64,000 nucleotides of DNA from Methanomicrobia archaeon (GTDB lineage: Archaea > Halobacteriota > Bog-38 > Methanoflorentales > Methanoflorentaceae): NCBI GenBank assembly GCA_015660915.1, contig JACTTZ010000003.1, forward strand, positions 4,479 to 68,478, written 5' to 3'. Position numbers and translations under genes: made by a program. Positions 36,075-59,488 of this stretch are shown here, in pieces; the first letter of the stretch is position 1; every line of letters begins with the position of its first letter. The notes below the pieces were generated by a model. It saw only the letters and a list, made by a program, of their open reading frames with translations. It was not told the origin of the DNA and made no database searches.

Positions 36075-36962
36075 ATGGATATACTTTTAGCCGAGTACGC
36101 AAGCGCAATGGTGCCCAGCCTCGCAGAAGAGGGGCGTGCGATGTTACACACGCTCGAAGCAGGCTTTCAAAAATGCGGGCACTCCGTGCACGTGCCATGG
36201 CTGCAGAAGGGCGACGCCAGCGCTTTTTATGCGCAGATAGAGCGACTTGCACGAACGTGTGACGCGGGACTCGTCATCGCTCCCGACTACCTCCTTCACG
36301 ATCTTACTGCGCTTATTGAACGACACACGACGAATCTCGGGTGTCCCGCAGAGGCAGTCCAGAAAGCGGCTGACAAACTCGCCGCGTCTGTGGTTCTTTC
36401 GCAAGGATCGCTGACCGTTCCTGAAATAAACCCCCCTACAGGCCCATATGTGTTAAAGCCACGCGAGGGCTGTGGCGCAGAGGGAATTCACATCGTCGAA
36501 ACGTTCGAAGCAAACGGCATCGACGAGAACACGTTCGTCTCGAGGTTCGTCACTGGAGATCACATCAGCGTCAGTCTTATCATCGGAAGAACTGTGCTCC
36601 CTCTATCGATCAACAAGCAGCATATTCGCATCGATGAGACTATCCATTATCTAGGTAACACGACACCGTATTCCGTTCCGAACGCGAGCGAAGTCATCGA
36701 TCAGGCCTCGAGAGCCGCGCAGTTGCTGGGGTGCGAAGGGTACGTCGGCGTTGACATCGTGTTGCAGTCCGACGGCGTCGTGAATATCGTCGATGTGAAT
36801 CCGCGTCCGACGACGGCGATAGTAAGCGTCGACAAGGTGATCGGCAACGTAGCGGATCTAATTCTCAAAGCGCGATTAGGAGAAGAATTGCCAACGGTTC
36901 TGAAACCGCACGGCATACACACTTTCTTAAGAACCAGCTGCGGCAGCAACCGCCTTCTTTAA
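36075..36962 (+). CDS. ATP-grasp family ligase (RimK/MptN-like)
   Basis: About 295 aa, ATP-grasp pattern. Paired with the downstream hydantoinase-like gene as in methanopterin-related loci. Confidence 0.5.
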   Translation: MDILLAEYASAMVPSLAEEGRAMLHTLEAGFQKCGHSVHVPWLQKGDASAFYAQIERLARTCDAGLVIAPDYLLHDLTALIERHTTNLGCPAEAVQKAADKLAASVVLSQGSLTVPEINPPTGPYVLKPREGCGAEGIHIVETFEANGIDENTFVSRFVTGDHISVSLIIGRTVLPLSINKQHIRIDETIHYLGNTTPYSVPNASEVIDQASRAAQLLGCEGYVGVDIVLQSDGVVNIVDVNPRPTTAIVSVDKVIGNVADLILKARLGEELPTVLKPHGIHTFLRTSCGSNRLL

Positions 36963-36968
36963 ACTGCT

Positions 36969-37946
36969 ATGACCCAAGGCGAAACAATCGGAATCGACAT
37001 CGGTGGAGCAAACACAAAAGTAGCCTCTACCAGCGGGACCGCGAGAAGCTTTTATATGCCCCTATGGAGGGAGAACGACCTCGCGGGCTTGTTGAAGAGC
37101 GTGAAAGACGAGTTTCGACCGGAGCGCGTGGGGATCGTGATTACAGGCGAATTAGCCGACGCTTTTACCAGCAAGAAAGAAGGGATTTGCTCAATAGCGT
37201 CTGCTGTCAACTCAGTCTTTACGAAGCCGTGCTATCTAAACATTCGCGGGCAGCTTACGCCTGCCATCGCAGAGAGAGACGCGCTTTTATACGCTGCGTC
37301 AAACTGGACGGCCTCGGCCGCCTTTCTTGCAAAAAGTTCCCAAGATTGCATATTCGCAGACGTAGGGAGCACAACAAGCGACGTCATTCCTATAAAGAAT
37401 GGCAAGCCGGTCACCCTGATGACCGACTTTGAACGGTTGCGGGAGCACGAACTCATCTACATGGGTGTGCTGAGAACCAACATCGCGGCCCTTTTGCGCT
37501 TTGTCAACCTTAATGGCAAGAAGTACAGGCTCTGCTCAGAACTGTTCACCATCACCGCAGACGCGCACCGCATTCTAGGAAACATCGATGAGTCGGATTA
37601 CACTTGTGACACGCCAGATTCTCAATCACGCAATCTTGAAGCATGTTATCGAAGAATCTCGCGACTCGTGCTTTGTGACGTAGACGAGCTTGGCAGGCAA
37701 AATGCACACGAAGTTGCCAAGCAGGTGGAGCGAACCCAGATCAATGACCTTGCCGACGCACTCGCGTTTCAGGCACGAAAATTCGAGTTAAACACGGTCA
37801 TCGGCGCAGGTCTCGGCGAGTTTCTCGTAGCCAAGGCTGCCTTGAAGGCACAACTTGAATGTCGATTGCTCTCGCGGCAATACGGCCGCGAGCTTTCGAA
37901 CATGTTCCCGGCATTTGCGGTTGCACAGTTGGTCCAACACGCGTAG
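36969..37946 (+). CDS. hydantoinase/oxoprolinase-like ASKHA-fold protein (H4MPT-pathway-associated family)
   Basis: N-terminal GIDIGGANTK phosphate-1 motif of the ASKHA superfamily. Confidence 0.45.
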   Translation: MTQGETIGIDIGGANTKVASTSGTARSFYMPLWRENDLAGLLKSVKDEFRPERVGIVITGELADAFTSKKEGICSIASAVNSVFTKPCYLNIRGQLTPAIAERDALLYAASNWTASAAFLAKSSQDCIFADVGSTTSDVIPIKNGKPVTLMTDFERLREHELIYMGVLRTNIAALLRFVNLNGKKYRLCSELFTITADAHRILGNIDESDYTCDTPDSQSRNLEACYRRISRLVLCDVDELGRQNAHEVAKQVERTQINDLADALAFQARKFELNTVIGAGLGEFLVAKAALKAQLECRLLSRQYGRELSNMFPAFAVAQLVQHA

Positions 37947-38159
37947 CTTACTGCAAACGAATCAGTCTCGAACCGCCACTAACCTCAAAACTGCCTGCAT
38001 CCTCTTGACTCGTGCTTCCCTTAAAGAGTTCTTTTTTTAACTTCAGCATCGAAACGCCGTTTGTCGAAGCGTTGTCGTGTATGCATATGTGTGACAAACA
38101 AATGTACTCACGCGGCCTTATACCGTTTTTTGCCTTTCTTGGACCTAGAGGCAACGATC

Positions 38160-38333
38160 ATGGTGACAACGGATACAGGGTGCTACTACGGCGTTCACTT
38201 TGGATGCCTCTGCGCCGCGCGCGATCCCAACTGTCGACGCTGCGCAGAACGCCTCACAAACGCAGTGAATTACTCACTGCAACCGGGTGGAAGCACAGTC
38301 GACGCACCACGCACGGAAAATGCGTCGTGTTGA
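38160..38333 (+). CDS. small 4-Cys protein, paralog of 48576-48920
   Basis: C-x7-C-x8-C-x2-C with the shared motif PNCRrCAeRLTnAVN. Confidence 0.4.
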   Translation: MVTTDTGCYYGVHFGCLCAARDPNCRRCAERLTNAVNYSLQPGGSTVDAPRTENASC

Positions 38334-38382
38334 CGCTGCCACAGAATGTACGGCAAAATAGGAAGCAAGGCAAAACGAGGAG

Positions 38383-39663
38383 ATGACGATGTCAGGCGTG
38401 TTGTCCGTTTCGAACGCTTATGATGGAGCATCGCCCCTGAACAGCTTGGAAACTGTCATACAAAAGCTCAGCGAATTCGGGCTCAGCGAAAAGGAAGCAC
38501 AGCTTTACGTGTACTTGCTGAAGTATGGTCCAAAGCGCGCAGGGGATCTTGCGCGGTCTCTGAAAACGTATCGTCTAGGGGTCTATCGAAAACTAGCAGG
38601 CCTCATCGATAAGGCGCTTGTGACCACAAAGAGAGCGAGCCCCGCCGTGTATACAGCGGTGGACCTTGCCGAAGCGCTTGACGCCGTAATAGCCTCCCGC
38701 CAGCGCGAGCTTCGCTTAGTAGAGGACATTAAGAGCGATCTAGTCGCCCTTGTGAACGGCAGGCACCCGCTGGCAGCCGACGACTCTCTTCCAACAACGC
38801 TTGCGAATGGCGACGAGCAAGTGCTCGTACAACTGTTGAGCGTATTCGGACTTAGCGATAAGGAGGCGCAGCTCTACGTGCACCTTCTTAAGTACGGTCC
38901 GAAGCGCGCGGGGGATCTTGCGCGGTCGCTCAAGACGTACCGTGAAGACGTGTACCGGAGGTGTGCGCGATTGATTGACGAAGGTATGATAGTGAAAGGC
39001 GTAAAGGATAAGGCACGCTACGCACCAGTCGAGCTAGATCAAGCTCTTGACGGCGCGCTCAGGGCCCACCAGAACGAGCTTCGCCGCTTAGAAAGGGCCA
39101 AGCAGGAGCTAATCGAAGAGACGAACGTCATCCTCAACAGAGGATCGAGCAGCGCTCCCGAGTTCAAGAATCTTGACACTGTCGGGGAAGTAGTCACTGC
39201 AATCTCGCAGCTCATTAACTCGGCAGAGACTTCCATTATCTTCGCTGCACATCAACGATTCAGCCCCCTATCAATGGGGGGCTTCTTGGATCACCTAAAA
39301 TGTGCCATTGGGCGCGACGTGCGTGTCCGTGGTGTGCTTGATATCTCGCCTAGGAATTCTTCTGCGGGGCGCGCGTATATAAGCTGTGGCGTTGAACTGC
39401 GGAATATAAACCCGTACAAAGGCATCACGATGGTTATGGCCGACCGCAAGCAGAGCGTCAGCCTCATCCACGCCGATATGAAGAGCGCTTTTTCGTTGGA
39501 TGAAAAAGTCGCGGCAATATGGAGCAACAGCGTTGCGCAATCAGAATTCCTTACTAGCGCGTTTGAGACGGCCTGGGAACAAGCCGTTGGCGCGGAAGAA
39601 TACTTGAATAAGCTACTGCGGCAAGAACGTCCATCACTAGAGTCCGCCCCAACCACCTACTAG
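38383..39663 (+). CDS. TrmB-family transcriptional regulator with tandemly duplicated N-terminal wHTH
   Basis: Two copies of FGLSeKEAQLYV.LLKYGPKRAGDLARSLKTYR (TrmB N-domain), then a TrmB_C-like domain. The DNA shows an internal repeat of about 130 bp at roughly 38440-38580 and 38810-38950. Confidence 0.6.
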   Translation: MTMSGVLSVSNAYDGASPLNSLETVIQKLSEFGLSEKEAQLYVYLLKYGPKRAGDLARSLKTYRLGVYRKLAGLIDKALVTTKRASPAVYTAVDLAEALDAVIASRQRELRLVEDIKSDLVALVNGRHPLAADDSLPTTLANGDEQVLVQLLSVFGLSDKEAQLYVHLLKYGPKRAGDLARSLKTYREDVYRRCARLIDEGMIVKGVKDKARYAPVELDQALDGALRAHQNELRRLERAKQELIEETNVILNRGSSSAPEFKNLDTVGEVVTAISQLINSAETSIIFAAHQRFSPLSMGGFLDHLKCAIGRDVRVRGVLDISPRNSSAGRAYISCGVELRNINPYKGITMVMADRKQSVSLIHADMKSAFSLDEKVAAIWSNSVAQSEFLTSAFETAWEQAVGAEEYLNKLLRQERPSLESAPTTY

Positions 39664-39995
39664 GACGCTTCAACTTAGGCACTGATATGTGACTGAACGA
39701 GAACACTATTTGCTTACTACAGCGAATTCTGCACACCACTATGTGTTTCTCAGCAGTTTGCTTTTGCTTGCTGAGACGTTCGAAATGTTGTGAAAACAGT
39801 CAGTTCCAGCGGCAGAGCGGATTCAAGAGCTATTAGAACGAGGGCCGCCGCAGACGTGAAGCACGAGCGAGGGCACTTGGCAACGAGAACGCATAATGTT
39901 GCGTGCCGCTCACTTAGACTCAGCTCCTAGCATAGCCCACATGAAGGAAATGATGTCACGCAACTTTATAAACCCCTAATCATTTCTCTTTCTTA

Positions 39996-40454
39996 ATGGT
40001 TAAAGAAACAATTATTGAAACTGTGAAAGATGCCATAGCAGTGACTTCGACTATAGTAGAATCTGCAGAGAGAGAGCTCGCCTGGCTTCTTCCAGCGCCT
40101 ATGTTGGTGATGGGCGCGCAATACAACATTCAATCGAAAGGCCTGATACAAAAAGGTGGACGAGTGCGCGGAATAACCACGATCTCATCACCATATGTCG
40201 AAACCGTACGCGAACTCCTCGACACGGGCGTAGACGTGCGTCATCTTGAAAACTACACGGGCTCGTTTATGCTCGTCGCAGACAAAAGCCAAAGCATTAG
40301 TTCGATTCACCTCAACGTCGAAGATCTCTCACTTGATGACAAGATCGTTGCATTCTGGACTGATGATGCTGACTACGCCGAGTACCTGCTTGCAAACTTC
40401 GAAACGGTCTGGGCAGAAAGTACTGATGCGCAAAAGCGGATCCACGAATTTTAG
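39996..40454 (+). CDS. TrmB C-terminal domain protein (stand-alone)
   Basis: Matches the C-domains of 40840 and 43329 (ELLDtGvdVRHl..Y.G.fm.V.Dk.qs.SsI...WTDd.dYA.YLl..FE). Confidence 0.45.
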   Translation: MVKETIIETVKDAIAVTSTIVESAERELAWLLPAPMLVMGAQYNIQSKGLIQKGGRVRGITTISSPYVETVRELLDTGVDVRHLENYTGSFMLVADKSQSISSIHLNVEDLSLDDKIVAFWTDDADYAEYLLANFETVWAESTDAQKRIHEF

Positions 40455-40839
40455 AGAAAGATCCCGACAAATAGAGCGCACGGAGCGCAAGCAGCTCCAC
40501 GCTGATCAAGCTATTTCATATGCTAGTTCTAAGACTTGCTGCGACCCGTGTTAGACCATGTTTTACAAAAACACTCGGCATTCGGATAATTTCGCCAACA
40601 GGTGGAGTTTAACTAATAAGGAGCTATCCTAACCCGCCCCGCGAGTTTGCGGGACTCAGATGATGATTTGACAATTATTCTCATTATTATTTTGATAATT
40701 CCATTAGCCTAGCATAATCACACAACGAAAGAAGAGCTCAAGCGGCCCTTAGAACGATCAGACGTCTGTATGACAAAATAAAACAGTATGGGCTAAAACT
40801 AAGACGGCAACTTTTATCTACGCCCTATCATATCTTTTT

Positions 40840-41679
40840 GTGATGGACGATGACGCGGAATTTATTACTCGTCTGATCGGCTTCGGGCTTAGTGAAAAGG
40901 AGGCACAGACCTATCTTCACTTGCTCAAGTACGGTCCCAAGACGCCCTCGCCGCTCGCGAAGTCACTCAAGACATACCGTGAAGACGTGCACCGGACGCT
41001 CACCAGTCTCATCGAAAAGGGTATGGTGCGCCCCTCACTCGACGCTCCAACGATCTACGCCGCAGTGAACGTCGACACCGCTCTCGCGGCTGCGCTCAAA
41101 AAGCACGAGAGCGAGCTGCACGAGATGGAAGCGCGAAAACGAGAGCTCGAGGAGCTCTCAGAGCGACAGCGTTTTCCGAGCTCAGACGAGCATGCCACTT
41201 TCAAGATTATCAAGAGCGTCAAGGAAGTCGTCGCTGCTGCCTCAACTCTCATATCCTCTGCAAAAAACGGATTCTTGTACATCGTTCCCTCTGAAATGCT
41301 CGTTATCACCTCTTTGCTAGGGGTAAACGCAGAAGCCGAAAAGCTCATAGAGCGAGGGGGGTATATTAGGGGAATTAGTGAAGTTAAGTATGCGGATATA
41401 GCGCCCGCTCAAGAGGTCCTGGACATTGGCGAAGAATTGCGGCACTATGACAGTTATGGGGGGATATATTTCGCGGTAGTAGATAGCAAGCAAAGCGTTA
41501 GCGCGATCAACGTCGATATCAACCGGATCTCACTGAATGAACCCGTTTCACTGCTCTGGACCGATGATCCGACTTACGCTAAATATCTCACAGCTACCTT
41601 TGACACGTTGTGGGAACAATCCATCCCCGCGAGCGAGCAAATCGAGAAACTTCTGCTACGAGGACCTCCGAAAGCCTAA
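40840..41679 (+). CDS. TrmB-family transcriptional regulator
   Basis: N-terminal wHTH (RLIGFGLSEKEAQTYLHLLKYGPKTPSPLAKSLKTYRED) plus TrmB C-domain. Confidence 0.6.
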   Translation: MMDDDAEFITRLIGFGLSEKEAQTYLHLLKYGPKTPSPLAKSLKTYREDVHRTLTSLIEKGMVRPSLDAPTIYAAVNVDTALAAALKKHESELHEMEARKRELEELSERQRFPSSDEHATFKIIKSVKEVVAAASTLISSAKNGFLYIVPSEMLVITSLLGVNAEAEKLIERGGYIRGISEVKYADIAPAQEVLDIGEELRHYDSYGGIYFAVVDSKQSVSAINVDINRISLNEPVSLLWTDDPTYAKYLTATFDTLWEQSIPASEQIEKLLLRGPPKA

Positions 41680-41800
41680 GCGAGCCTTGCGCCACATCCT
41701 TGCTGCCTCCGTTAGTCAGCATCGTCAGAAATGAGGTTGAGCGACGCAACGGCGTCACAGGTTAATAAGCTCCGAGAGCCTCATCAGCACAGGTGTAAAC

Positions 41801-43018
41801 ATGAGGGACGAGTATGACGTCATTGTGGTCGGGGCGGGTCCAGGAGGGTCTACTGCAGCACGCACCGCTGCCGAGACGTGCGATGTGCTGCTGATTGAAA
41901 AGCGTCAGGAGATCGGTGCGCCGGTGCGCTGCGCAGAGGCAGTTCTTAAGAGCGCGTTAGTAGGATTAGTGTACCCAGATAAGAAGTGGATTTCGAGCTA
42001 CATCCGTAGGTACCGAATCTTCGCTCCTGATGGCACGATGCTTGACATATCGGCGGAAGCGATGGGCATTGAGGGCGAGCTCGCGTACATCCTTGAACGC
42101 AAGATTTTCGATCGCGAGCTCGCGAAAGACGCGGCGCGGGCCGGTGCTGACGTCATGGTGCGCACCCGCGCTACGGGGCTCATCATAGAAGACGGGGTAG
42201 TGAACGGCGTGAAAATCAAAAGGCTTGGAGAGAGTCTCGAGGTACGCTCAAAGGTCGTGATAGGTGCAGATGGCGTGGAGTCACAGGTCGGCCGATGGGC
42301 TGGGATCAATACTGCGTTTAAGCTCAAAGACGTTGGGATCGGCGTTCAGTACCTAATGACTAATGTCGATGTGGCAGAAGACTCTTGCGACGTCTACGTC
42401 GGCTCGCGAGCAGCGGGAGGCTATGCTTGGGTTTTTCCTAAGGGCGAAAAACTAGCAAACGTAGGGCTTGGTATGCCAGCGAGCATGCTAAACGGGAGCA
42501 AGCCGATAGATTATTTGAACAAGTTTGTCTCGAAACAGTTTCCGGAGGGACAGCAGCTTGGCCTTATCATGGGAAGTGGTCCCTCCAGCGATGAGCTCAA
42601 AACTGTAATATGCAACGGACTGATGCTGGTAGGTGACGCCGCACACCATTGCGATCCTCTGAGCGGTGGCGGTATTACTAACGCAATGGAAGGCGGAAAA
42701 ATAGCAGGCAACGTTGCGAGCAAAGCAGTGCAGCAACGAGACTCTTCAGTTCGCGTTCTTAAGGAATATGAAGATACGCGGCGTGGATCGCTTTTCGGTA
42801 AGCTACAAAAACACAACTACAGAATCAAAGAGTTTGTAGTAACCTTGTCTGATAATGAGCTAAGCAAGCTTATACGGTCATTGAAGGGCATAAGACCGCA
42901 AGAGATCAATTTTGCAAGCGTCGTGCGCTTAGTTGCAGCGAATCCGAAGGTCCTGCTTGTTATGCACGATCTGGCGCGTTTGAAAGAGCTTGCAGACGCG
43001 CTAACGGAGAAACGTTAA
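41801..43018 (+). CDS. geranylgeranyl reductase family FAD-dependent oxidoreductase
   Basis: YDVIVVGAGPGGS FAD-binding motif; GGYAWVFPKG; GDAAHH..P..GGGI. Confidence 0.8.
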   Translation: MRDEYDVIVVGAGPGGSTAARTAAETCDVLLIEKRQEIGAPVRCAEAVLKSALVGLVYPDKKWISSYIRRYRIFAPDGTMLDISAEAMGIEGELAYILERKIFDRELAKDAARAGADVMVRTRATGLIIEDGVVNGVKIKRLGESLEVRSKVVIGADGVESQVGRWAGINTAFKLKDVGIGVQYLMTNVDVAEDSCDVYVGSRAAGGYAWVFPKGEKLANVGLGMPASMLNGSKPIDYLNKFVSKQFPEGQQLGLIMGSGPSSDELKTVICNGLMLVGDAAHHCDPLSGGGITNAMEGGKIAGNVASKAVQQRDSSVRVLKEYEDTRRGSLFGKLQKHNYRIKEFVVTLSDNELSKLIRSLKGIRPQEINFASVVRLVAANPKVLLVMHDLARLKELADALTEKR

Positions 43019-43328
43019 ACGCTCTACGACAACGGCCTGTGTACGACTGCCGAAAGCACTTTGCGCCTTATTTTGAAATGTAGGCAATGCTGAGGCCCCT
43101 GATAATAAAATTCTCGAGCGTTCTCGAGCAACCCCCTATGACCGAGTGTCTGGTTGATCTGGCATTTATTCTCGTCCCGTTGCTGATAAGGCCCCTTGGC
43201 CAAGCATACCCTAAAGAACGAAAGCAGAGCGTAAGACGTGTTTTCCCGGAACGATTAGATATCTAATTGATCTAACAAATCAACAGTATACAATCAAACA
43301 AAGCAACTTTTATCTACGGCCTATTATC

Positions 43329-44174
43329 ATGCTTTGTTGCATGGATGACGAAGCAGAGTTTGTAACTCGTCTGATCGGCTTCGGGCTTAGCGAAAAGGAA
43401 GCACAGACCTACCTTTATTTGCTCAAGTACGGCCCCAAGACCCCTTCTCCCCTCGCAAAATCCTTGAAGACATACCGTGAGGACGTGCACCGCACACTTA
43501 CTAGTCTCATCGAGAAGGGCATGGTACGTCCGTCGCTCGACGCGCCAACGATCTATGCGGCGGTGGACCTCGACACTGCCATTGACTCTGCAGTAAAAAA
43601 GCACGAAAGTGAACTGCGTGAGATGGAAGTGCGAAAGCAGGAGCTTCACGAGCTTTCAGAGCGGCAGCGGTTCAGACCTTCTGACGAAGTCTCGACGTTC
43701 AAAATCGTTAAAAGCATGAAGGAACTCATTAGTATCTCTGTCCCCGTCGCAGCTGCATGCCAAAATGAATTCGTTATAGTAACTCCTGAAGAAATGATCG
43801 GTATCGCTTCGCTGTTCGTATTAGACGAAGTCGAGAAGATGATAGGGCGCGGAGTGAGCTTCAGAATGCTGACCGATATATCGTACTCCGGAATTGAGTT
43901 AATTAAAGAAGCGTTGCAAGTTGGGGAGGAGGTACGCCACTTACACGAATATCACGGGGTGTATTTGGCTGTACTGGACAGAAAAACTTGTTGGCACGGT
44001 ATTAACATGGATATCAAGCATATCTCGCTCAATCAACCCGTTGCAGTACTCTTTACCGATGATCCTAACTACGCTCAATACCTGTTAGCCACTTTTGAAA
44101 TGCTGTGGAAACAGTCAATTCCCGCCGAACAGCGAATTGAAGAACTACAAAAACAAGGCCCACCACCGGTTTGA
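43329..44174 (+). CDS. TrmB-family transcriptional regulator (paralog of 40840)
   Basis: The N-terminal 100 aa are about 90% identical to 40840-41679. The upstream 40 bp are also duplicated. Confidence 0.6.
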   Translation: MLCCMDDEAEFVTRLIGFGLSEKEAQTYLYLLKYGPKTPSPLAKSLKTYREDVHRTLTSLIEKGMVRPSLDAPTIYAAVDLDTAIDSAVKKHESELREMEVRKQELHELSERQRFRPSDEVSTFKIVKSMKELISISVPVAAACQNEFVIVTPEEMIGIASLFVLDEVEKMIGRGVSFRMLTDISYSGIELIKEALQVGEEVRHLHEYHGVYLAVLDRKTCWHGINMDIKHISLNQPVAVLFTDDPNYAQYLLATFEMLWKQSIPAEQRIEELQKQGPPPV

Positions 44175-44206
44175 CTGGCTTGCTGCGCAGCATCTACAAA
44201 GTAAAG

Positions 44207-45184
44207 TCACCTGTCGTTTTTCAGCACGTGCAAGTAGTAGCACGCAATCTGCCTTCGCACGCTTGTGGGCATCAGCAATAACTGCGGAAGATGTCTGACG
44301 ACGTCAAACGGAAGGACCTTGTTGATAGCTCTCGCAAAAGTAGCATGATTGAAGTAGTGGCGCGCATTGGATTCCTGCGCCTCCAAGGACGGAAGAACAT
44401 ACGTCGATAGATCCTGAGCTATAACGATTGAGAACTCCTTTCGCATAGCATCCTCAACGTTGTCAATGCGTTCAAACGTTTCAAGCACAGAGCCTCTGTA
44501 AATGAGCTTCCACATGGTTTTTTCCGACTCACTCAGCGGGATTGCGCGATTTCTCGTGTACGGGTCAAAAATAATGAAAAAGCCACCCTTTGTTAATTTC
44601 TTCTTCACCTCACGCAGGACTTCTAATTTCTGAGTCGAGTAACACAAGGCCTCAATGACAAAGACGATATCGTACGAATTACCCTTGAACTGGCTTAAAT
44701 TATGGTAGTCCCCAAAACAAAAGTGCAAATTTGGTATCGTTGTGAAACTTCTCAAAGGTTTGTTGGAAATATCAATCGCGTCAAAGGCCACGTGAGGGTT
44801 CCGCCTCGCAAGGTATGCGGAGTTGGTACCTAGCCCGTAGCCAAGTTCGAGCACCTTTTTAGCGTTGTTGTCCTGAATATACGTGTCAACTATTCTTGCT
44901 TGTTCCCTGAAATCCCCTTTTTTGCGTTTCCCGTCGTAGCTAATTCCGCAATGGATAAATCCCTCAAAATTCCATGCCAGTCTATAAGAACGTTTGTTCA
45001 TCAGATAATAGTTGATAATTTGTGACTTGTCGCGCGGTGCGTCAATAATACGTGGTATGTCGAATATCTTACGAATCTGCGCAAGATATAACTCAAGATT
45101 ATCATCTTGTTCGACAATATGCTCGCGCGCTGTGGAATCAGTTGTGAATTCAGTGGTTTTGCACTCGGTGGTTTCTTCACCCAT
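44207..45184 (-). CDS. class I SAM-dependent methyltransferase
   Basis: VLELGYGLGTNSAYLA motif I (GxGxG) and the overall class I MTase pattern. Confidence 0.65.
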   Translation of the reverse strand: MGEETTECKTTEFTTDSTAREHIVEQDDNLELYLAQIRKIFDIPRIIDAPRDKSQIINYYLMNKRSYRLAWNFEGFIHCGISYDGKRKKGDFREQARIVDTYIQDNNAKKVLELGYGLGTNSAYLARRNPHVAFDAIDISNKPLRSFTTIPNLHFCFGDYHNLSQFKGNSYDIVFVIEALCYSTQKLEVLREVKKKLTKGGFFIIFDPYTRNRAIPLSESEKTMWKLIYRGSVLETFERIDNVEDAMRKEFSIVIAQDLSTYVLPSLEAQESNARHYFNHATFARAINKVLPFDVVRHLPQLLLMPTSVRRQIACYYLHVLKNDR

Positions 45185-45185
45185 T

Positions 45186-46067
45186 TCACTGGAACCCCCA
45201 GACAGCTACCGTAAGCGCGTAAACAGCGCTGGCGGCCCCCACAAGATAAGGGAAATACAAAGTAAACATAACCAACTGCTTTCTTACGTTTAAAAGGTCT
45301 GGCGCCCTAAGCAGAGATAAGGCAGTAAAGATTCCGATGGCTCCCCAGATTGCTATGGGAATTAAGTACGCGTCGCCCACAACCCTGACAACAAATGGAA
45401 AGGGCGATGTTAAAACGGAAAGAAGCAGAAAAAGGGCGCCAACAATCGCCGCTATACGTATACCGCGCTTGATGGCCAAGGTGGGGTATCCCACTTTCAA
45501 ATCACCGTCCACAGTTAGGACGTCCTTTAGGACGTTCAGGCCGATGGCGGCTGCAGCAATCATCCCAACAAACGAGAGAGCGGCAATATCGATGGTTTTA
45601 AACACGACTGCCCCTGCAAAGAGCGCTATAGTTGCCCCCAAGTATCCCATCACAAGGTTGCTTAAAAACCCAGAAATCCGCTTGAACACGCGCGGATACA
45701 ACAAAAAAAGGACAACGTTAAGCGCGACAATTCCAAAGGCCAGAACGTTGATCGCATACGACGCGAGCAGCCCAGCAAAAAAGGTCAATGCGGAAAACTG
45801 CGCTGCTCTTATGGGAGAGATCCGGTTTGACGGAATAACTCTTTCGGGATGGGTAAGCCAATCCGACTCGCAGTCAAAGTAATCATTGATGGCTGCACCC
45901 CCAGCAACTACGAGCGACACGGTAAGAATGGCTAAAACCATCGAAACTAGATCGCCGAAACCTTTTTGGAACGTTAATATCAAGAGCACGCAGAGAAGGT
46001 CCAGCATAAGAATATAAGGAACCCTGATTAGACTGACATAAGCCTTCAATTTAGCAGCGAATTGCAT
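45186..46067 (-). CDS. UbiA-family aromatic/isoprenoid prenyltransferase (DGGGP-synthase-like)
   Basis: Polytopic membrane protein with a NDYFDCESD Asp-rich motif. Confidence 0.7.
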   Translation of the reverse strand: MQFAAKLKAYVSLIRVPYILMLDLLCVLLILTFQKGFGDLVSMVLAILTVSLVVAGGAAINDYFDCESDWLTHPERVIPSNRISPIRAAQFSALTFFAGLLASYAINVLAFGIVALNVVLFLLYPRVFKRISGFLSNLVMGYLGATIALFAGAVVFKTIDIAALSFVGMIAAAAIGLNVLKDVLTVDGDLKVGYPTLAIKRGIRIAAIVGALFLLLSVLTSPFPFVVRVVGDAYLIPIAIWGAIGIFTALSLLRAPDLLNVRKQLVMFTLYFPYLVGAASAVYALTVAVWGFQ

Positions 46068-46539
46068 TATTTTCCGAAAAACTTCTTTGATACGCTGTAT
46101 AAGTAAATTCTCATATGGACTCGCTGCTTAAGTCGCTGCCAACGTCATCAGAAACTAGGTTAACTAGCCCGCGCGCGCAAATCCGTTCTGCCGGTGAGCA
46201 CAAAGGAACACCCCAAAAAAGCCAAAATGCCCCGTGATTAGCGATGCACGCGCAAGTGAGGCGTTCAAACACCGAGAAATTTCAGATTGCACGAACGAGA
46301 CCGTTGAAAAGACCTGTTTAGAGCAAGAGTGGTTCAACCTTCGCAAAACTGCCATGATCCAACGAAGCATTTAAATGCGAAAGCTTATCGTTGGCCTGTT
46401 TCTCCTTATGTGCGCCACAACGCGATAGATGCTCAGAGCGTTCTTAAAACGGTGCCCACATTTCTATCAACTGCTCCGAACGACTAACGGATGTGCGTTT
46501 TTTATCGCCGATCCGCACGAATGTGCAGCCAGAGACAGG

Positions 46540-47742
46540 ATGATGAGAGACGAGTATGACGTAATAGTGGTGGGGGCGGGCCCAGCAGGTTCCATCGCTG
46601 CCCAACACGCGGCCGCCCAGTGCGATGTGCTGCTTGTCGAAAAACGACAGGCTATCGGGGAGCCTATAAGATGTGCGGAAGGTGTCCCTCTTTGGCAATC
46701 GCCCATTTTTCCAAAGTCATTTAGCGAATATGTGCAGCCAGATCCAAACTGGATTGCTAGTGAGGTTCGACGAATCCGAGCCACCAGTCCCGATGGCACG
46801 ACTATTGAAGTGTCTTCAGAAACGTTTGGAGTCGACGGGCCGCTTGCCTTTATCATCGAGCGAAAACTCTTCGATCGACAACTTGCCAAAGACGCAGCAC
46901 GGGCGGGGGCCGATATAATGGTGCGCACTCGCGCGTCAGGGCTCATTATTGACGAGAACGTGGTTAAAGGCGTCCGGGCAAACAGGCTTGGTGACGAATT
47001 TGAGCTGACGGCTAAGGTTGTAATCGCTGCAGATGGCTTGGAATCACAAGTTGGTCGATGGGGCGGCATCAATACTTCCCTCGAAGCCAAAGATATCGCG
47101 AGCTGCGCCCAGTATTACGCGGAAAATGTCGACGTATCCCAGGAAACTGTCGACCTCTACTATGGCTCGAATATTGGAGGCGGCTACGCGTGGGTATTTC
47201 CCAAAGGTGACAAAACAGCAAATGTAGGGCTCGCTGTTCCTGGAAGCAGATGCGGTGCTAAGCGGCCAATAGACTATCTTGATGAGTTTGCGGCGAAGCG
47301 CTTCCCTAGTGCTCAGCCTATCGGACTTATACTGGGTGGCATCGCCATCAGCAACGAGCTTCGCACGATCGTGCGAAACGGACTGATGCTTGTTGGTGAC
47401 GCCGCGCACCACACTGATCCACTGACGGGTGGGGGCATTGTCCCAGCGCTGGAGAGCGGGACTATTGCAGGCAAAGTTGCGAGCAAAGCCGTCCGTAAGA
47501 ACGACCCCTCAGAGAGAGTGCTTCGCGAATACCAAACTGAGTATAATCATTCATTTGGCACTATGCGGAGGCTTAGGTACAGTTGCAAGGAGTTGGCCGT
47601 AAGCCTTTCCGATGAAGAAATAAACAGGGTGATGCGGGTACTTAATGGTATCCAACCCGGAGAACTGAGTCTGAAGAGCATTACAATGCGTTTTCTAAGA
47701 AAGGATCCGCGGCTTCTGTTAAAGGCAAGACAACTAGTCTAG
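46540..47742 (+). CDS. geranylgeranyl reductase family oxidoreductase (paralog of 41801)
   Basis: MMRDEYDVIVVGAGPAGS; GGYAWVFPKGDKTANVGL; GDAAHHTDPLTGGGI. The track start at 46429 adds an unlikely 37-aa extension. Confidence 0.8.
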   Translation: MMRDEYDVIVVGAGPAGSIAAQHAAAQCDVLLVEKRQAIGEPIRCAEGVPLWQSPIFPKSFSEYVQPDPNWIASEVRRIRATSPDGTTIEVSSETFGVDGPLAFIIERKLFDRQLAKDAARAGADIMVRTRASGLIIDENVVKGVRANRLGDEFELTAKVVIAADGLESQVGRWGGINTSLEAKDIASCAQYYAENVDVSQETVDLYYGSNIGGGYAWVFPKGDKTANVGLAVPGSRCGAKRPIDYLDEFAAKRFPSAQPIGLILGGIAISNELRTIVRNGLMLVGDAAHHTDPLTGGGIVPALESGTIAGKVASKAVRKNDPSERVLREYQTEYNHSFGTMRRLRYSCKELAVSLSDEEINRVMRVLNGIQPGELSLKSITMRFLRKDPRLLLKARQLV

Positions 47743-48429
47743 CTATTCTTCGTTTTCCCGTTTTCTGCACATTCATATATGTCGCGGGGGTATCAATTGT
47801 CGACTGCGGGCCCTTGATAGGCACAAAAGCGAAAAAAGTTGTTTTCCTGGTTTTGCGGTCGCTTGTGACTGTGACAACAGTTTTCGTGAACTTACGGAAA
47901 CCAAACGTCGTCAGCTAACGCGTAATAATGCAGCTTAGCGCCTTATAGCAACCAAGTGAATTTTCGCGACGTAGTTACGCTTACGTGGGAGTAAGAAAAT
48001 ATTAGCGCGGCAATTCGAAAGTAAGATCTTGACTACTGCCGCGGATGGGGACATTATCGAAATGAACACTAGAATTAAACGTCCTCTTGTTGGCAATAAC
48101 GGCTATTTTTCGAGCTGCAGGCAGGACAAATTAAACCGTGGGACGAGCGAGCGGAACGCGTAGCAAACCTCACTCACAAAACCGCCTGCCGCCATGTGGG
48201 TGCTAAATTTCCGCCTACACTCGTGAGAAATCCAAGGGGGTGAAAGAAAACCCGCCTGCTAGACTACGGCACCTAGCCTCAGCGGAATCGACGGCACACG
48301 ACGGGTATGTCTTCCTCTACAGTTGGGCGCGGATGTGACGCGAGCTTGTTGTCACACTTTCGTACACGTAGGATGCCTCACGCGGCCTAAAGAAACATTT
48401 TTGCGCAGGTTGAAGTGGAGGTGACCGTG

Positions 48430-48576
48430 ATGGTAAACAAGGAACAGACGAAACTTGAACGCGACATTGCCATTATAGAGCAGACGCTTCGTGCGATGAT
48501 CGAGATTGATTCTGCAGTAGCTCAAGCGCCCGCAGATGACACTCGGCAGAGCACCGATTACGCCACACTAATGTAA
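48430..48576 (+). CDS. small ORF (48 aa) translationally coupled (ATGTAATGA) to the downstream 4-Cys protein gene
   Basis: Start and stop are visible; the overlap is suggestive. No motif. Confidence 0.25.
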   Translation: MVNKEQTKLERDIAIIEQTLRAMIEIDSAVAQAPADDTRQSTDYATLM

Positions 48577-48920
48577 TGACCACTGAAAACAGTGTGTGCT
48601 TCTATGGGCTTCGCGTCGGCTGCCCTAGTGCATCGAATCCTAACTGTCGAACGTGCGCAGATCGTTTGACACACGCTGTCAATGAGATGCTGCGCTCGAC
48701 TGGACGTAGTGCTCGAATAAGCAAAAACGCTACCGAACCTCTAATCGATGAAGCCTCAGAACGTCTCACAAAGAAATGGCGTGTCGATCAACTGCGTGAC
48801 AGAGCCCAACTAAACTTCGCGCTGTTGACTGCCCGGACAAGGCTTGCCACTCTGCGCGAGCGGACTCTGACCAGCAGTCTTTCCGAACGTGACATTTTGC
48901 GGTGGCTTGGAGGCCGCTGA
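48576..48920 (+). CDS. small 4-Cys protein (paralog of 38160-38333) with an Arg-rich C-terminal tail
   Basis: CFYGLRVGCPSASNPNCRTCADRLTHAVN. Confidence 0.4.
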   Translation: MTTENSVCFYGLRVGCPSASNPNCRTCADRLTHAVNEMLRSTGRSARISKNATEPLIDEASERLTKKWRVDQLRDRAQLNFALLTARTRLATLRERTLTSSLSERDILRWLGGR

Positions 48921-49314
48921 AGCTGTAGTATTGTGTGACTCGTGATTGACAAGGGTGCGTAGCCACCTCAAGTAAAGTCATCCCAGTGCTTCTTGTCCTA
49001 ATGACCAAGCGGCTATCTGCCGTAGTCACGAGAAACAAGCAATTTATCAACAACTTTTTCCCTAGGACAGCCTCCTTATTGCAAATCGCAAACATGTCCT
49101 TTTATAGGTAGACTCTAAGATCTTTTAGTCCATAGTCACATCAAGAGTGGCCTGGAACGCACATGCGTTGTCTGCAACAATGAAGCGTGTTGAACGACGA
49201 CGTTTGGTGTGGGTGGCCGTGAGCGATCCTCGACGGGCACCTTAAACCTGCGAAAGCCGAATAAGATCTCTAATCGCGGAAAAAACCGCAAAATTGTGAA
49301 ATAAGGGTGAAAGT

Positions 49315-50877
49315 ATGCCAACCGGAATTGTGCTTGGCGGCGGGGGAACGCTAGGCGATTTTCAAGTCGGAGTTTTGAAGTACCTCTACAAGAAGGGCGT
49401 TCTGCCACATATCAAATGTGTCTGCGGCACGTCAATTGGCGCAATCAACGCTGCGATAATCGCAACGGGTGACGGGTGCACCGCAAGACTCGAAAAGTAC
49501 TGGGAGGAGGACGTAAACTCCCGCGTGGACCTAATTCCGCAGCACGAATGGTCAGACACCTTAGGCCCTCTGCTGGAAGCGATCTTTCGGGGCGTGGTTG
49601 GTTCGTGGGTGTACGCGATGGGCTGTCTTGCGCTCGACTCAGAGCACACATTCAGCGACTTTAGGGGCGCAATCAAGGACATGGAAGAAATGTTCGAGCT
49701 TGCTCGCAAGCAACGTGCGCTTTACTCAGCGGAGCTTCTCGAAAAAAAGATGTATGATGATACGCAAGATCTCGACAAAGCCCTGAAATCAGATATAGCA
49801 CTGCGCATTTACGCAACAGACCTTAAAACGGGGGCTTGCACGTGTTTCCACAACAAAGCTTGCAAAATCGATCCTGAGAAGAAAAGGGGAGGTCGTAAAG
49901 AATACGTCCTTTGCGACTCGCGCGAGAAGCTCGTCAAGGCCGCCCTAGCCTCTTCAGCGATTCCAGGGATATTTTCTCCCGCCGAGGTGGACTGCAACTG
50001 GTATATCGACGGTTCGGCCCGAGAAGTCGTCCCTGTCGCGGGGGCGGTCGAGTGCGAGGCCGATGAGATCTATGCCATTCTCTGTCTGCCTCGTCTCACT
50101 CCGGGGGAAGACTCAGTTGTGGATTACGCGACCGAGGACTGGAGCACGAGCAGCGTTTTCGACATCCGCACTGAGGACTTTAGCACGAATTGCATGGATT
50201 GGAGCAGCAAGGGGGATCGTGATTTGATCGACATAGCAAACCGCACAGCAGCAATTGTGTTAGATGAGCTCACCACCGGCGATCTTGAAGCTGCGAAGCA
50301 AAGCGATAAGCCAATCAAATGTCTGAAAGTCATCGACCCCCTAGTCCCCGTTCACGGATTTGCACAGTTGAATATCGGCCTTTTGAAAATCAACATCGAC
50401 CAGGGCCACATGCGCGCTTTCGATGAGCTAGACGCCCCAAAAGCTGAGCGCAAGCGATGTAAGCAGCTGACGAAAGAGATAACGTCTCGACGGGTTGCCA
50501 TCTGGCGAGACGAACACAAACTCATCGAACAATGGGCGCAAGCGACGAAGCAGTGGCCGCTTAAGGGATTATATCCGATGCGGATCCTCTGCTTACCACT
50601 TATGCTATGCGGTTGGGACGAAATCGGCGCAGTGGACACAACGATTCTGTCGGAGATCCGCAGGCAAAAGAAAGAACTGAAGCGATTTGCCGAAGAAAGA
50701 CTGAAACTTGTTGGAATTACGTCGCTACCTGAAAACTATAAGGATATTTACCGAAATTGGGAACCGCACGACTTGCACCACGAGATGGAAGACATACCGC
50801 TCCCGCGAACTCCGTGGGATCGCCTCGACCTCGGCCGCTTGGGCACTGAGGTGATTCCCAAAGAAGAGCTGCCGTAG
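49315..50877 (+). CDS. patatin-like phospholipase with a long C-terminal extension
   Basis: GGGGTLGDFQ (oxyanion GGxR/K-like), GTSIGA (GxSxG nucleophile), and DGS/DGG Asp of the dyad. The patatin domain is about 250 aa, followed by an unrelated region of about 270 aa. Confidence 0.7.
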   Translation: MPTGIVLGGGGTLGDFQVGVLKYLYKKGVLPHIKCVCGTSIGAINAAIIATGDGCTARLEKYWEEDVNSRVDLIPQHEWSDTLGPLLEAIFRGVVGSWVYAMGCLALDSEHTFSDFRGAIKDMEEMFELARKQRALYSAELLEKKMYDDTQDLDKALKSDIALRIYATDLKTGACTCFHNKACKIDPEKKRGGRKEYVLCDSREKLVKAALASSAIPGIFSPAEVDCNWYIDGSAREVVPVAGAVECEADEIYAILCLPRLTPGEDSVVDYATEDWSTSSVFDIRTEDFSTNCMDWSSKGDRDLIDIANRTAAIVLDELTTGDLEAAKQSDKPIKCLKVIDPLVPVHGFAQLNIGLLKINIDQGHMRAFDELDAPKAERKRCKQLTKEITSRRVAIWRDEHKLIEQWAQATKQWPLKGLYPMRILCLPLMLCGWDEIGAVDTTILSEIRRQKKELKRFAEERLKLVGITSLPENYKDIYRNWEPHDLHHEMEDIPLPRTPWDRLDLGRLGTEVIPKEELP

Positions 50878-51239: not shown

Positions 51240-51842
51240 ATGACGCGCACCGTGCTTAAGGTCGGAGGCAGTCTACTCGCAGTCTCCAAAGAGTTGATTG
51301 ACTACTTGATAGAGGCTCACGTGAACGCAGTAGTGGTACCCGGCGGGGGGCCATTTGCACAGACGGTCCGACGCTATGCGGATCGCACCAACGAGACTGC
51401 CGCCCACTGGATGGCAGTTCTCGCAATGAATCAGTATGGATTCTATATGGCAGCTCCAGGAGCGACACTAGTCGAGAAGCTGAGCGCGCTTGAACACGGA
51501 ATTTGCATTTTTTTACCTTTCAAGATGTTATACGACAAAGATCCGCTGCCCCACTCTTGGAATGTCACCTCCGACTCCGTCGCTGGCTGGGTTGCCCACG
51601 AGCTCAAGGCCAATCTCGTGATAGCGACGGACGTCGACGGAATCGTTTTTTCCAATAAGTTGGTTTCGCGTGTTTCGGCGAGCGAACTCAGGGCGCAAAC
51701 GTGCGTCGATGCGTTTCTGCCGCAGCTCTTGGCTATCCACAACCGAGATTGCACGATCGTGAATGGTCATCACTTTCAACGTGTCGTCGCCGCGATTCAG
51801 GGACGCGAAACGGTCGGCACGACGATTATCGGACGAAAGTAG
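51240..51842 (+). CDS. amino-acid-kinase-family protein (MfnE-like small kinase)
   Basis: LKVGGSLL N-terminal motif and VVVPGGG. About 200 aa, matching the short archaeal AAK-family kinases. Confidence 0.5.
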   Translation: MTRTVLKVGGSLLAVSKELIDYLIEAHVNAVVVPGGGPFAQTVRRYADRTNETAAHWMAVLAMNQYGFYMAAPGATLVEKLSALEHGICIFLPFKMLYDKDPLPHSWNVTSDSVAGWVAHELKANLVIATDVDGIVFSNKLVSRVSASELRAQTCVDAFLPQLLAIHNRDCTIVNGHHFQRVVAAIQGRETVGTTIIGRK

Positions 51843-52387: not shown

Positions 52388-52471
52388 TGCACCGACCGGG
52401 ATTCGAACCCGGGTTGTGGGCTTTCTTCACGCGTTGGAAGGCCCAAGTCATAACCGCTAGACCATCGGTGC
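52388..52471 (-). tRNA. tRNA-Gly(UCC) with a 12-nt intron 3' of the anticodon
   Basis: Manual fold: acceptor GCACCGA/TCGGTGC, anticodon arm TGGGC-CUUCCAA-GCCCA, T-arm CCGGG-TTCGAAT-CCCGG. TATA-like ATTAATATA about 30 nt upstream. Confidence 0.7.
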
Positions 52472-59066: not shown

Positions 59067-59372
59067 CAAAATGTGTGGAGATGCGAACATCAGAGAAGTT
59101 GAAGCAATTCGGTTTTTCGCTTTTCATAGGCCTCGCTAGTGATAAAACCTTTCTCACGTAACACATCGAGCTTTTCTATTTGCTCGATTATGTCCTCTTT
59201 CATGCTTTGATGCTTCTCTTCGTTAGCCATCGTGTTTCGGATAGCCTTTATGAACGATAAACTTTATGTATTTTCACACGTAATAATATATTCTTTTTTG
59301 CTTGCACCCTTCACGTAGACGTTAACCCAAGAAGTGGTACACGCGTAGCGTGTAAAAGCAGTACTTTGAACA

Positions 59373-59468
59373 AGCCGCCGGAGGGATTTGAACCCTCGAT
59401 CTGCTGATACTTCTTTGAGCGGTGCTCAAATACGAATCAGCCGCTATGCCGAGCTTAGCCACGGCGGC
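59373..59468 (-). tRNA. tRNA-Thr(CGU) with a 22-nt intron (hairpin UUUGAGC...GCUCAAA) after position 37
   Basis: Manual fold: acceptor GCCGCCG/CGGCGGC, D-stem GCTA/TAGC, anticodon stem GCTGA/TCAGC with loop UUCGUAA, T-arm GAGGG-TTCAAAT-CCCTC. Confidence 0.6.
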
Positions 59469-59488
59469 CACGCATAGTATGTTTAGAC

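Follow-up and report, generated by a model that had tools for sequence, protein, structure and literature searches.

An old, clade-specific island of ether-lipid-type isoprenoid enzymes and TrmB-type regulators in Candidatus Methanoflorens/Bog-38

Several described systems stand close to the genes considered here. The digeranylgeranylglyceryl phosphate (DGGGP) synthase, DGGGPS, is known in structure from Methanocaldococcus jannaschii (6m31). The prenyl/olefin C-methyltransferases include the geranyl pyrophosphate (GPP) C-methyltransferase (4f86/3vc2), the farnesyl pyrophosphate (FPP) C6-methyltransferase (9tb4) and TleD (5gm1). In tuberculostearic-acid synthesis, an S-adenosylmethionine (SAM)-dependent methyltransferase step is followed by an FAD reductase. 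The regulators TrmB and TrmBL2 have been solved from the Thermococcales (3qph and 5bpd). Finally, archaeal genomes carry several geranylgeranyl reductase (GGR) paralogues with an unclear division of labour, and the lipid GGR gene of Methanosarcina acetivorans adjoins a ferredoxin gene (PMC10821996). Our literature search found no paper that ties TrmB regulators to GGR/UbiA clusters. Here, we analysed a 64,000-nucleotide stretch of contig JACTTZ010000003.1 (assembly GCA_015660915.1; hereafter called the “window”) from a Methanomicrobia archaeon of the Bog-38 lineage, in which comparable genes lie side by side in one island.

We propose, with a probability of about 0.6, that this is an old and often reshuffled island specific to the Ca. 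Methanoflorens/Bog-38 clade of peat methanogens, in which ether-lipid-type isoprenoid enzymes are combined with many TrmB-type regulators, and we infer that it functions as a regulated ether-lipid/isoprenoid modification locus. The island is a clade-specific variant assembled from known families. Its eleven genes, at 38160-50877, lie in the order cys1-trmB1-trmBC-trmB2-GGR1-trmB3-MT-UbiA-GGR2-cys2-patatin (Table 1); the open reading frame (ORF) listing and the family scans recovered every gene named by the first-pass annotation, a model's reading of the sequence, in the same order and with the same family assignments. Bog-38 has been equated with Ca. Methanoflorens (PMC12296737). A protein identical to GGR1 is encoded in GCA_049523195.1, and many peat metagenomes contain it too; the contigs that carry it reach 216 kb.

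The anatomy of the island was compared among ten related loci, some of whose contigs stop short of the flanks (L009 is partial). Wherever a contig reaches them, the genes for an MfnD-like ATP-grasp protein and an MfnF-like hydantoinase (TIGR03123, 346.7 bits) flank the island on one side, and that for an MfnE-like AA-kinase on the other. The constant parts are cys1-trmB1, at least one trmB2/3-like gene, the MT-UbiA pair and cys2. The UbiA-MT operon is present in 10/10 related loci (UbiA is fragmentary in L015), with a gap of 1 nt between the two genes in the window, L007 and L008. trmB1 is found in every related locus whose contig extends to that end, and a cys1 orthologue, 61-76% identical, lies upstream of trmB1 in all relatives.

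The rest of the island varies. Both GGR genes occur in the window, L007 and L090, and GGR1 in the partial L009; neither is present in L008, L010, L011, L012, L014 or L015. The patatin gene is missing from L014 and L090. The trmB and trmBC genes together number 2 to 7 per island, with one to three of trmBC alone; extra or broken trmB copies and extra MT genes occur, and L015 contains a second UbiA-patatin-cys2 module. In the tree of the flanking genes, L090 is outermost, and the GGR-bearing and GGR-less lineages are interleaved; therefore, either the GGRs are ancestral and were lost at least three times, or they move between lineages. Moreover, the gene trees conflict, as the MT gene is nearest to that of L010 (85%), UbiA to those of L007/L008, and the flanking genes to those of L014, which points to recombination within the island. 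In relatives, a complete trmB gene stands some 135 nt before trmBC; at that place, the window has only a short relic (39776-39849) that, judging from its sequence, is what is left of a deleted trmB gene's 3′ end. We propose that the invariant skeleton consists of promoter-cys1-trmB1, at least one TrmBL2-like regulator, the divergently oriented UbiA-MT operon and promoter-orfX-cys2, and that the cassettes added to it (extra TrmBL2-like genes, HTH-less C-domain genes, GGR1, GGR2, extra MTs and patatin; HTH, helix-turn-helix) were gained, lost, pseudogenised and exchanged among lineages.

How old is the paralogy within the island? The order TrmB-GGR ... TrmB-(MT, UbiA)-GGR resembles an interrupted repeat, and trmB2/trmB3 and GGR1/GGR2 are both genuine paralogue pairs. 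The first-pass annotation had read this order as a TrmB+GGR unit, tandemly duplicated and then split by a foreign UbiA/MT pair. The dot-plot that it had proposed was performed as a self-comparison of 36-51 kb; the paralogous pairs were seen, but with moderate similarity only, and there was no segmental duplication at the DNA level. The trmB2 and trmB3 loci are 69% identical over 1008 nt (blastn E 2e-96; 63% amino acid identity), and the other matches are HTH-to-HTH pairs and the trmB 3′-end relic. The coding DNA is 66.5-69% identical over trmB2/trmB3 and 66% over GGR1/GGR2, and the self-comparison detected no similarity between the two trmB-to-GGR spacers. About 180 bp, covering the promoter and first codons of trmB2 and trmB3, had been described as nearly identical. 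The shared stretch is real, but the identity between 40808-40940 and 43304-43438 is 83% (112/135). Over the first 300 nt of coding sequence it is 80.7% (90% in the best 60-nt window), and over the C-terminal half 57.5%.

In the N-terminal 110 codons of trmB2/trmB3, the nonsynonymous divergence (dN) is 0.08 and the synonymous divergence (dS) is 1.36; in the C-terminal part, dN is 0.41 and dS is saturated. The HTH of every trmB2/3-like gene in the ten related loci is 83-89% identical to the window copies, and the window's own pair is 87% identical. Since dS is near saturation, dN is as low as 0.08 and the HTH is conserved to this degree across all genomes, the local DNA similarity of trmB2 and trmB3 is due to strong purifying selection on the DNA-binding domain, and not to a recent duplication. 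Gene conversion was considered and rejected, because the HTH identity within the genome is not above that between genomes and dS reaches 1.36. The C-domains form separate orthologous clades, with trmB3 grouping with L007/L008/L010 and trmB2 with L009. Orthologues of each paralogue exist even in genomes that share no more than 67-74% identity in the flanking genes, which also points to age.

The GGRs lead to the same view. They are paralogues, as annotated (55% amino acid identity; 66% over 966 nt, E 3e-56; dS 1.86), but the proposed phylogeny placed them in separate clades. A search with GGR1 returned thousands of GGR-family proteins, many of which are 60-67% identical and nearer to GGR1 than GGR2 is, and the source-named entries among the closest relatives are all labelled Halobacteriota archaeon. 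GGR2 of the window ranks 31st of 32 in similarity to GGR1. In each of the 100 bootstraps, GGR2 falls outside the GGR1 clade, the smallest split that contains both holds at least 19 of the 33 taxa, and several other clades separate the two. The pair is thus never found as sisters.

None of the three marks of a recent duplication (high identity through genes and spacer, low dS, and copies that are each other's closest relatives) was observed. The comparison essentially revealed old, diverged paralogues without DNA-level duplication, the very outcome that the first-pass annotation had named as refuting its model. The insertion half of the model fares no better: the UbiA-MT operon is invariant and the GGRs are variable, absent from six of the ten relatives, and a “TrmB+GGR” pair is no fixed unit, because in L009 and L090 the gene before GGR1 is trmBC instead of a full-length trmB. 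The MT and UbiA genes are indeed AT-richer in total GC content (0.449 and 0.489, as compared to 0.53 for the GGRs), but not at third codon positions (GC3), where they have 0.53 against 0.52-0.56. Since their GC3 equals that of their neighbours, a foreign origin based on composition was discarded. We regard duplication followed by insertion as highly improbable.

Next, we considered what the enzymes do. The catalytic motifs are kept in all of the island enzymes. GGR1 and GGR2 score 213.8 and 217.4 bits, respectively, with TIGR02032 (cut-off 158.8), and 80 and 70 bits with PF22578; both retain the FAD motif, the catalytic Cys and the YxWxFP motif (GxGxxG, RCAE and YAWVFP...GLG in the GGR1 translation). 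The equivalog cut-offs for digeranylgeranylglycerophospholipid reductase are not reached (289/263 bits against 780 for NF041160, and 163/150 against 580 for NF041080). UbiA matches PF01040 with 109.6 bits, and its NDYFDxESD motif and second Asp motif are invariant (N61, D62, D65, D69, D182 and D189). Its best solved relative is the M. jannaschii DGGGPS 6m31 (E 2e-28). Accordingly, the question raised earlier, whether UbiA is a DGGGP synthase or MenA, is answered in favour of DGGGPS as the nearest family, but the protein scores below every NCBIfam equivalog cut-off for it (143.4 against 296 bits, and 130.7 against 269).

These matches, together with the universal, syntenic presence of UbiA in the clade and the intact GGR motifs, raise the alternative of ordinary housekeeping lipid synthesis, with the island UbiA as the sole DGGGP synthase, the GGRs as redundant saturases, and the MT, TrmB and cys genes as unrelated neighbours. 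We consider it possible but doubtful. UbiA reaches only half of the DGGGPS cut-off, and it belongs to a radiation specific to Bog-38, with at least six paralogues in one genome. That count comes from a scan of one genome per species with the UbiA alignment as the query, in which the per-genome numbers are lower bounds, as a known paralogue on OY969924.1 was missed. The gene lies 1 nt from an MT gene of a nearly clade-restricted family, which follows UbiA in the relatives as well, and paralogous UbiA, MT, GGR and TrmB genes co-recur at other loci. In addition, a different set looks like the housekeeping one: a GGR 66% identical to GGR1 (P0166) is encoded behind a 58-aa ferredoxin and beside a polyprenyl synthase, the ferredoxin-adjacent arrangement of the M. 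acetivorans lipid GGR (PMC10821996). The NCBIfam DGGGPS scores were also tried as a pointer to the housekeeping paralogue; they are uninformative, as every homologue from Bog-38, Bathyarchaeia or “Methanocella” stays under the cut-offs, with 123-171 bits for its best DGGGPS-type model.

Among the matches listed, the closest relatives of UbiA are metagenome-assembled genomes (MAGs), including one named “bog_38”, and the nearest homologues beyond Bog-38 are from Bathyarchaeia (37-42%). Almost all of the recovered members of the UbiA and MT families belong to Bog-38-type archaea, and both families are multi-copy per genome. The UbiA of one contig labelled Methanocella sp. (L025, JBLNCY010000008.1) is 67-71% identical to the Bathyarchaeia proteins and 33-42% to the Bog-38 copies, which suggests a misbinned contig or a transfer.

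The MT protein matches the Pfam families Methyltransf_31/11/25. Its 229 homologues come, where the source is named, exclusively from “Halobacteriota archaeon” MAGs, with several per genome. The AlphaFold2 (AF2) model (pLDDT 85.6) has SDMT, RebM/AtmM, TleD, the GPP and FPP C-methyltransferases and PMT as fold neighbours, with TM scores of 0.53-0.60 to the prenyl C-methyltransferases and 0.59-0.69 to the N-/O-methyltransferases. The trio of prenyltransferase, SAM-dependent methyltransferase and GGR-family reductase mirrors MenA/MenG/MenJ, some sources label the MT “UbiE”, and GGR2 weakly matches MenJ (77.8 bits). A quinone- or methanophenazine-type pathway, with an aromatic prenyltransferase, a ring methyltransferase and side-chain reductases, is nevertheless very unlikely. 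UbiA matches DGGGPS best, and not MenA or the 4-hydroxybenzoate prenyltransferases; the MT scores 18.3 bits with the UbiE/MenG model TIGR01934, far under the cut-off of 158.35; the MenJ score is to be compared with a cut-off of 700; and the island contains no ring-biosynthesis genes. The first-pass annotation had suggested a modified lipid or quinone pathway under multiple TrmB-like regulators. With motifs intact and families co-recurring, its isoprenoid part is plausible, but its quinone branch is not favoured.

The main argument that the MT, UbiA, GGR, lipid hydrolase and TrmB-type regulators act jointly on isoprenoids is that their paralogues co-recur at other Bog-38 loci. One such locus combines UbiA, patatin, a small ORF, two TrmB genes and a PEMT/ICMT methyltransferase. 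Another (L091; OY969924.1 1005713-1022939) encodes UbiA (299 aa), ferredoxin, GGR and polyprenyl synthase, followed by MT-GGR and UbiA fragments, and is a candidate for the housekeeping lipid set adjoining another MT/GGR module. Two further loci hold MT, polyprenyl synthase and UbiA, and two MTs with a hydrolase, respectively. In L094 (OY970258.1 1161105-1176028), three paralogues of the island MT stand in tandem, together with a PGAP1-like (lipase-like) hydrolase and two TrmB-like genes. The L094 cluster adjoins genes for an integrase, a family-A DNA polymerase and a DnaB-like helicase, and may be an integrated element with such modules.

The regulators form an unusual array. PF01978 matches trmB1 (93.6 bits, in two stretches), trmB2 (53.4) and trmB3 (55.0) above the cut-off of 25.6, and does not match trmBC, which confirms the predicted double-HTH and C-domain-only forms. 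trmB1 contains an internal 369-nt repeat (38456-38588 / 38825-38957). The PF11495 sensor domain is partial (profile positions 10-132 of 233, 24.7 bits) and occurs in trmB1 only, and no effector domain with both subdomains was detected; the TrmB equivalog models give 28-52 bits, against cut-offs of 500-650. trmBC is 30-35% identical to trmB2 residues 123-271. The top Foldseek matches of the trmB2 model are TrmBL2 5bpd and TrmB 3qph, and its C-domain fits the phospholipase D (PLD) fold; this low-confidence model (pLDDT 66.6) was used only to back the sequence-level assignment. The C-domains of trmB2/3 and the whole of trmBC are PLD-like and lack the HKD motif. In the HTH, trmB2 and trmB3 share 87% identity; the C-domain of trmB3 falls in a different clade. 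With one constrained DNA-binding domain and divergent PLD-like C-domains, the paralogues could bind related operators in the island and answer different signals, and the HTH-less trmBC copies could serve as partners or decoys.

Conserved promoter blocks accompany these genes. The motif TCACGCGGCCTTAWA occurs three times in the window, as compared to 0.24 expected. The exact TCACGCGGCCTTATA box and a perfect palindrome precede the second trmBC paralogue (21672), and a variant of the box (39956-39973) precedes trmBC. The truly shared non-coding piece of trmB2 and trmB3 is the 22-nt GCAACTTTTATCTACGSCCTAT, about 15 nt before the ATG and unique to the two sites (40807-40828 and 43303-43324). The cys, trmBC and trmB genes carry related predicted core promoters, (T)CACGC[GA][GA]C[CT]TTATA / GCAACTTTTATCTAC, at 38089-38122, 39956-39973, 40807-40828 and 43303-43324, which the GGR, UbiA and patatin genes lack. 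The palindromes about 75 nt upstream of trmB2 and trmB3 were dismissed as a conserved operator and remain a weak lead, as only the window has them and the L007/L008 sequences are not palindromic.

The cys genes at the two ends of the island are paralogous, as had been predicted (50% identical over a 44-aa core). The family has a 40-aa core, C-x7-C-x7/8-C-x2-C (C-x7-C-x8-C-x2-C in cys1), followed by variable tails, and is represented by only 47 clusters among 1.84 billion proteins, all of them small. The block of about 100 nt at 48332-48429 is 76-80% identical at the nucleotide level in all relatives, above most of the coding DNA here, and is duplicated beside the extra cys2 copies in L007 and L015. 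This block ends in a strong Shine-Dalgarno (SD) sequence and is followed by orfX, which the first-pass annotation had not noted. The changes in orfX, judged by inspection, fall mostly at third codon positions, its SD is conserved, and it is annotated as a 48-aa gene in public assemblies. Degenerate, partly frameshifted cys2-like relics adjoin UbiA directly in L007 (9585-9700) and L008 (9634-9714), a hint that cassette junctions may be marked by cys-promoter units. A cys-like relic seen by eye just upstream of GGR2 in the window was not backed by the cys hidden Markov model.

The patatin matches PF01734 with 99 bits (cut-off 27.7), and its translation contains the GGGxxG, GTSIG and DGS motifs. 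A patatin effector, HTH regulators and a methyltransferase, in an island of variable gene content and mosaic gene trees, could also be read as an anti-virus defence system or a mobile island, as the patatin weakly resembles CBASS-type lipases and the MT weakly resembles the “mad2” model. We find this hardly credible: the PADLOC matches are all generic HTH, MTase or phospholipase similarities with no system recognised, no integrase or repeats were found at the island borders, the island position is fixed in all genomes compared, and the core genes encode isoprenoid enzymes.

Returning to the regulated isoprenoid locus, we infer its substrates, product and wiring as follows. The DGGGPS-derived UbiA would prenylate a glycerol-phosphate-type or similar acceptor, and the translationally coupled SAM-dependent methyltransferase would methylate the UbiA product or its prenyl chain. 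Where present, GGR1 and GGR2 would saturate the prenyl chains, and the patatin would hydrolyse or remodel a lipid. A more specific version, which we offer tentatively and hold to be rather unlikely in all its parts together, is that UbiA-MT (with GGR1/GGR2) makes a modified ether lipid or isoprenoid specific to Methanoflorens, such as a prenyl chain that is first methylated at a double bond and subsequently reduced, switched by TrmB sensors that share DNA specificity but differ in their ligand domains, with the HTH-less and 4-Cys proteins as modulators.

Several points weigh against the reading as a regulated isoprenoid locus. The promoter block common to the cys/trmBC genes was not found at the GGR1, GGR2, UbiA and patatin genes, which leaves the control of these enzyme genes by the TrmB proteins putative. 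The TrmB array and the enzymes could stand side by side for historical, not functional, reasons. The island UbiA may be a plain housekeeping DGGGP synthase, and the modelled MT fold does not separate C-, N- and O-methylation. All of the trees are neighbour-joining only. Furthermore, some of the relatives' “pseudogenes” from the MFD MAG assemblies, which we believe to be long-read, may be frameshift errors; split trmB genes were also found in the Stordalen (L009) and SPRUCE (L012) MAGs, which we take to be short-read assemblies.

Table 1. Features of the island and the outlying unit (window positions, 1-based).
Feature	Position	Strand	Description
cys1	38160-38333	+	small 4-Cys protein
trmB1	38383-39663	+	two tandem winged-helix HTH domains and one C-terminal TrmB-type domain
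trmB 3′-end relic	39776-39849	+	74 nt, matches residues 250-279 of trmB2/3
trmBC	39996-40454	+	HTH-less, TrmB C-terminal (PLD-like) domain alone
trmB2	40840/40843-41679	+	TrmBL2-like: HTH, coiled coil, single PLD-like domain; likely start ATG 40843
GGR1	41801-43018	+	geranylgeranyl-reductase family flavoprotein
trmB3	43329/43341-44174	+	TrmBL2-like regulator; probable start ATG 43341
MT	44207-45184	-	class I SAM methyltransferase, second gene of UbiA-MT operon, 1-nt gap
UbiA	45186-46067	-	UbiA-superfamily prenyltransferase, DGGGP-synthase-like
GGR2	46540-47742	+	second GGR-family flavoprotein, other GGR clade than GGR1
orfX	48430-48576	+	48-aa ORF, stop overlaps cys2 start
cys2	48576-48920	+	cys1 paralogue; conserved core 48576-48695, tail variable
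patatin	49315-50877	+	patatin-like lipid hydrolase
promoter/operator-like block before cys1	38089-38122	+	dyad GTGTGACAAACAAATGTACTCAC abuts GCGGCCTTATA; carries TCACGCGGCCTTATA box; about 90% conserved in seven relatives
trmB2 upstream region	40752-40828	+	palindrome CAGACGTCTG 40759-40768; core promoter-like GCAACTTTTATCTACGCCCTAT 40807-40828
trmB3 upstream region	43249-43324	+	palindrome TAGATATCTA 43256-43265; core promoter-like GCAACTTTTATCTACGGCCTAT 43303-43324
conserved non-coding block	48332-48429	+	GTGNCAC/GTCACAC repeats, TCACGCGGCCTAAAG promoter-like box, SD GGAGGTGA
outlying unit	21441-22169	+	trmB-tail relic 21441-21515; GTGACT-N6-AGTCAC and TCACGCGGCCTTATA 21618-21647; second trmBC paralogue 21672-22169; 18 kb from island

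Outside the island, the MfnD-like and MfnF-like genes (36075-37946) and the MfnE-like AA-kinase gene (51240-51842) are set apart by it, and a complete hemA-hemD/uroporphyrinogen methyltransferase run lies upstream of the former. Rfam and tRNA scans of the window gave no match inside the island. Rfam detected two tRNA genes beyond it, at 52388-52471 (-) and 59372-59469 (-); ARAGORN assigns them odd 4-base anticodons, and they probably contain introns.

The interest of the island is moderate and lies mainly in the ecological weight of the organism and in the unusual regulator array, and this is a comparative-genomics description. According to a published report (PMC12296737), no methanogen genus is more abundant in northern peat than Ca. 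Methanoflorens/Bog-38. In the literature, we found nothing on its lipids except a survey of Hbs (H-shaped glycerol dialkyl glycerol tetraether, H-GDGT). The radiations of DGGGPS-like prenyltransferases, a private methyltransferase family, and the many GGRs and TrmB-type regulators suggest a membrane or isoprenoid chemistry hidden by standard annotation, because annotation labels everything “DGGGP synthase”, “GGR” or “UbiE”. To our knowledge, there is neither a pure culture nor a lipid analysis of this genus. If the product is a distinctive lipid, then it would be a biomarker for Bog-38/Methanoflorens; if the modified lipid and the TrmB switch are both real, then the dominant methanogens of thawing peatlands would provide a new lipid biomarker together with a new regulatory design. 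In the TrmB array, the DNA-binding domain is conserved, the sensor domains have diversified and some copies lack the HTH; the array thereby offers a testable model for the diversification of regulator families in archaea.

How does the island compare with the known systems? Its UbiA resembles the M. jannaschii DGGGP synthase in the UbiA fold, both Asp-rich motifs and the best sequence match, but differs in scoring below the cut-offs, in belonging to a Bog-38-specific radiation with several paralogues in each genome, and in its coupling to a SAM-dependent methyltransferase. The MT shares the fold subfamily of the prenyl/olefin C-methyltransferases, and its genomic partners, prenyl-chain enzymes and FAD reductases, would suit the methylation of a double bond followed by reduction; this is an analogy, not membership, and N-/O-methyltransferases (2o57, RebM and PMT) match the MT equally well or better. 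As in archaea with multiple GGRs (reviewed in PMC10821996), there are several paralogues per genome, and the Bog-38 clade likewise has a ferredoxin-linked GGR next to a polyprenyl synthase. In contrast to the M. acetivorans GGR, GGR1 and GGR2 lack an adjoining ferredoxin gene and lie within an island rich in regulators, and many sister lineages do without them. Finally, trmB2 and trmB3 share the PF01978 winged helix, the long helix and the PLD-like domain with TrmB and TrmBL2, and are of similar length to TrmBL2 (about 278 aa); however, they are only 17-20% identical to these proteins and lack the second sugar-binding subdomain. Unlike TrmB and TrmBL2, they belong to an array of 3-7 paralogues that includes a double-HTH form and HTH-less, C-domain-only genes, and we know of no description of such an array for either regulator.

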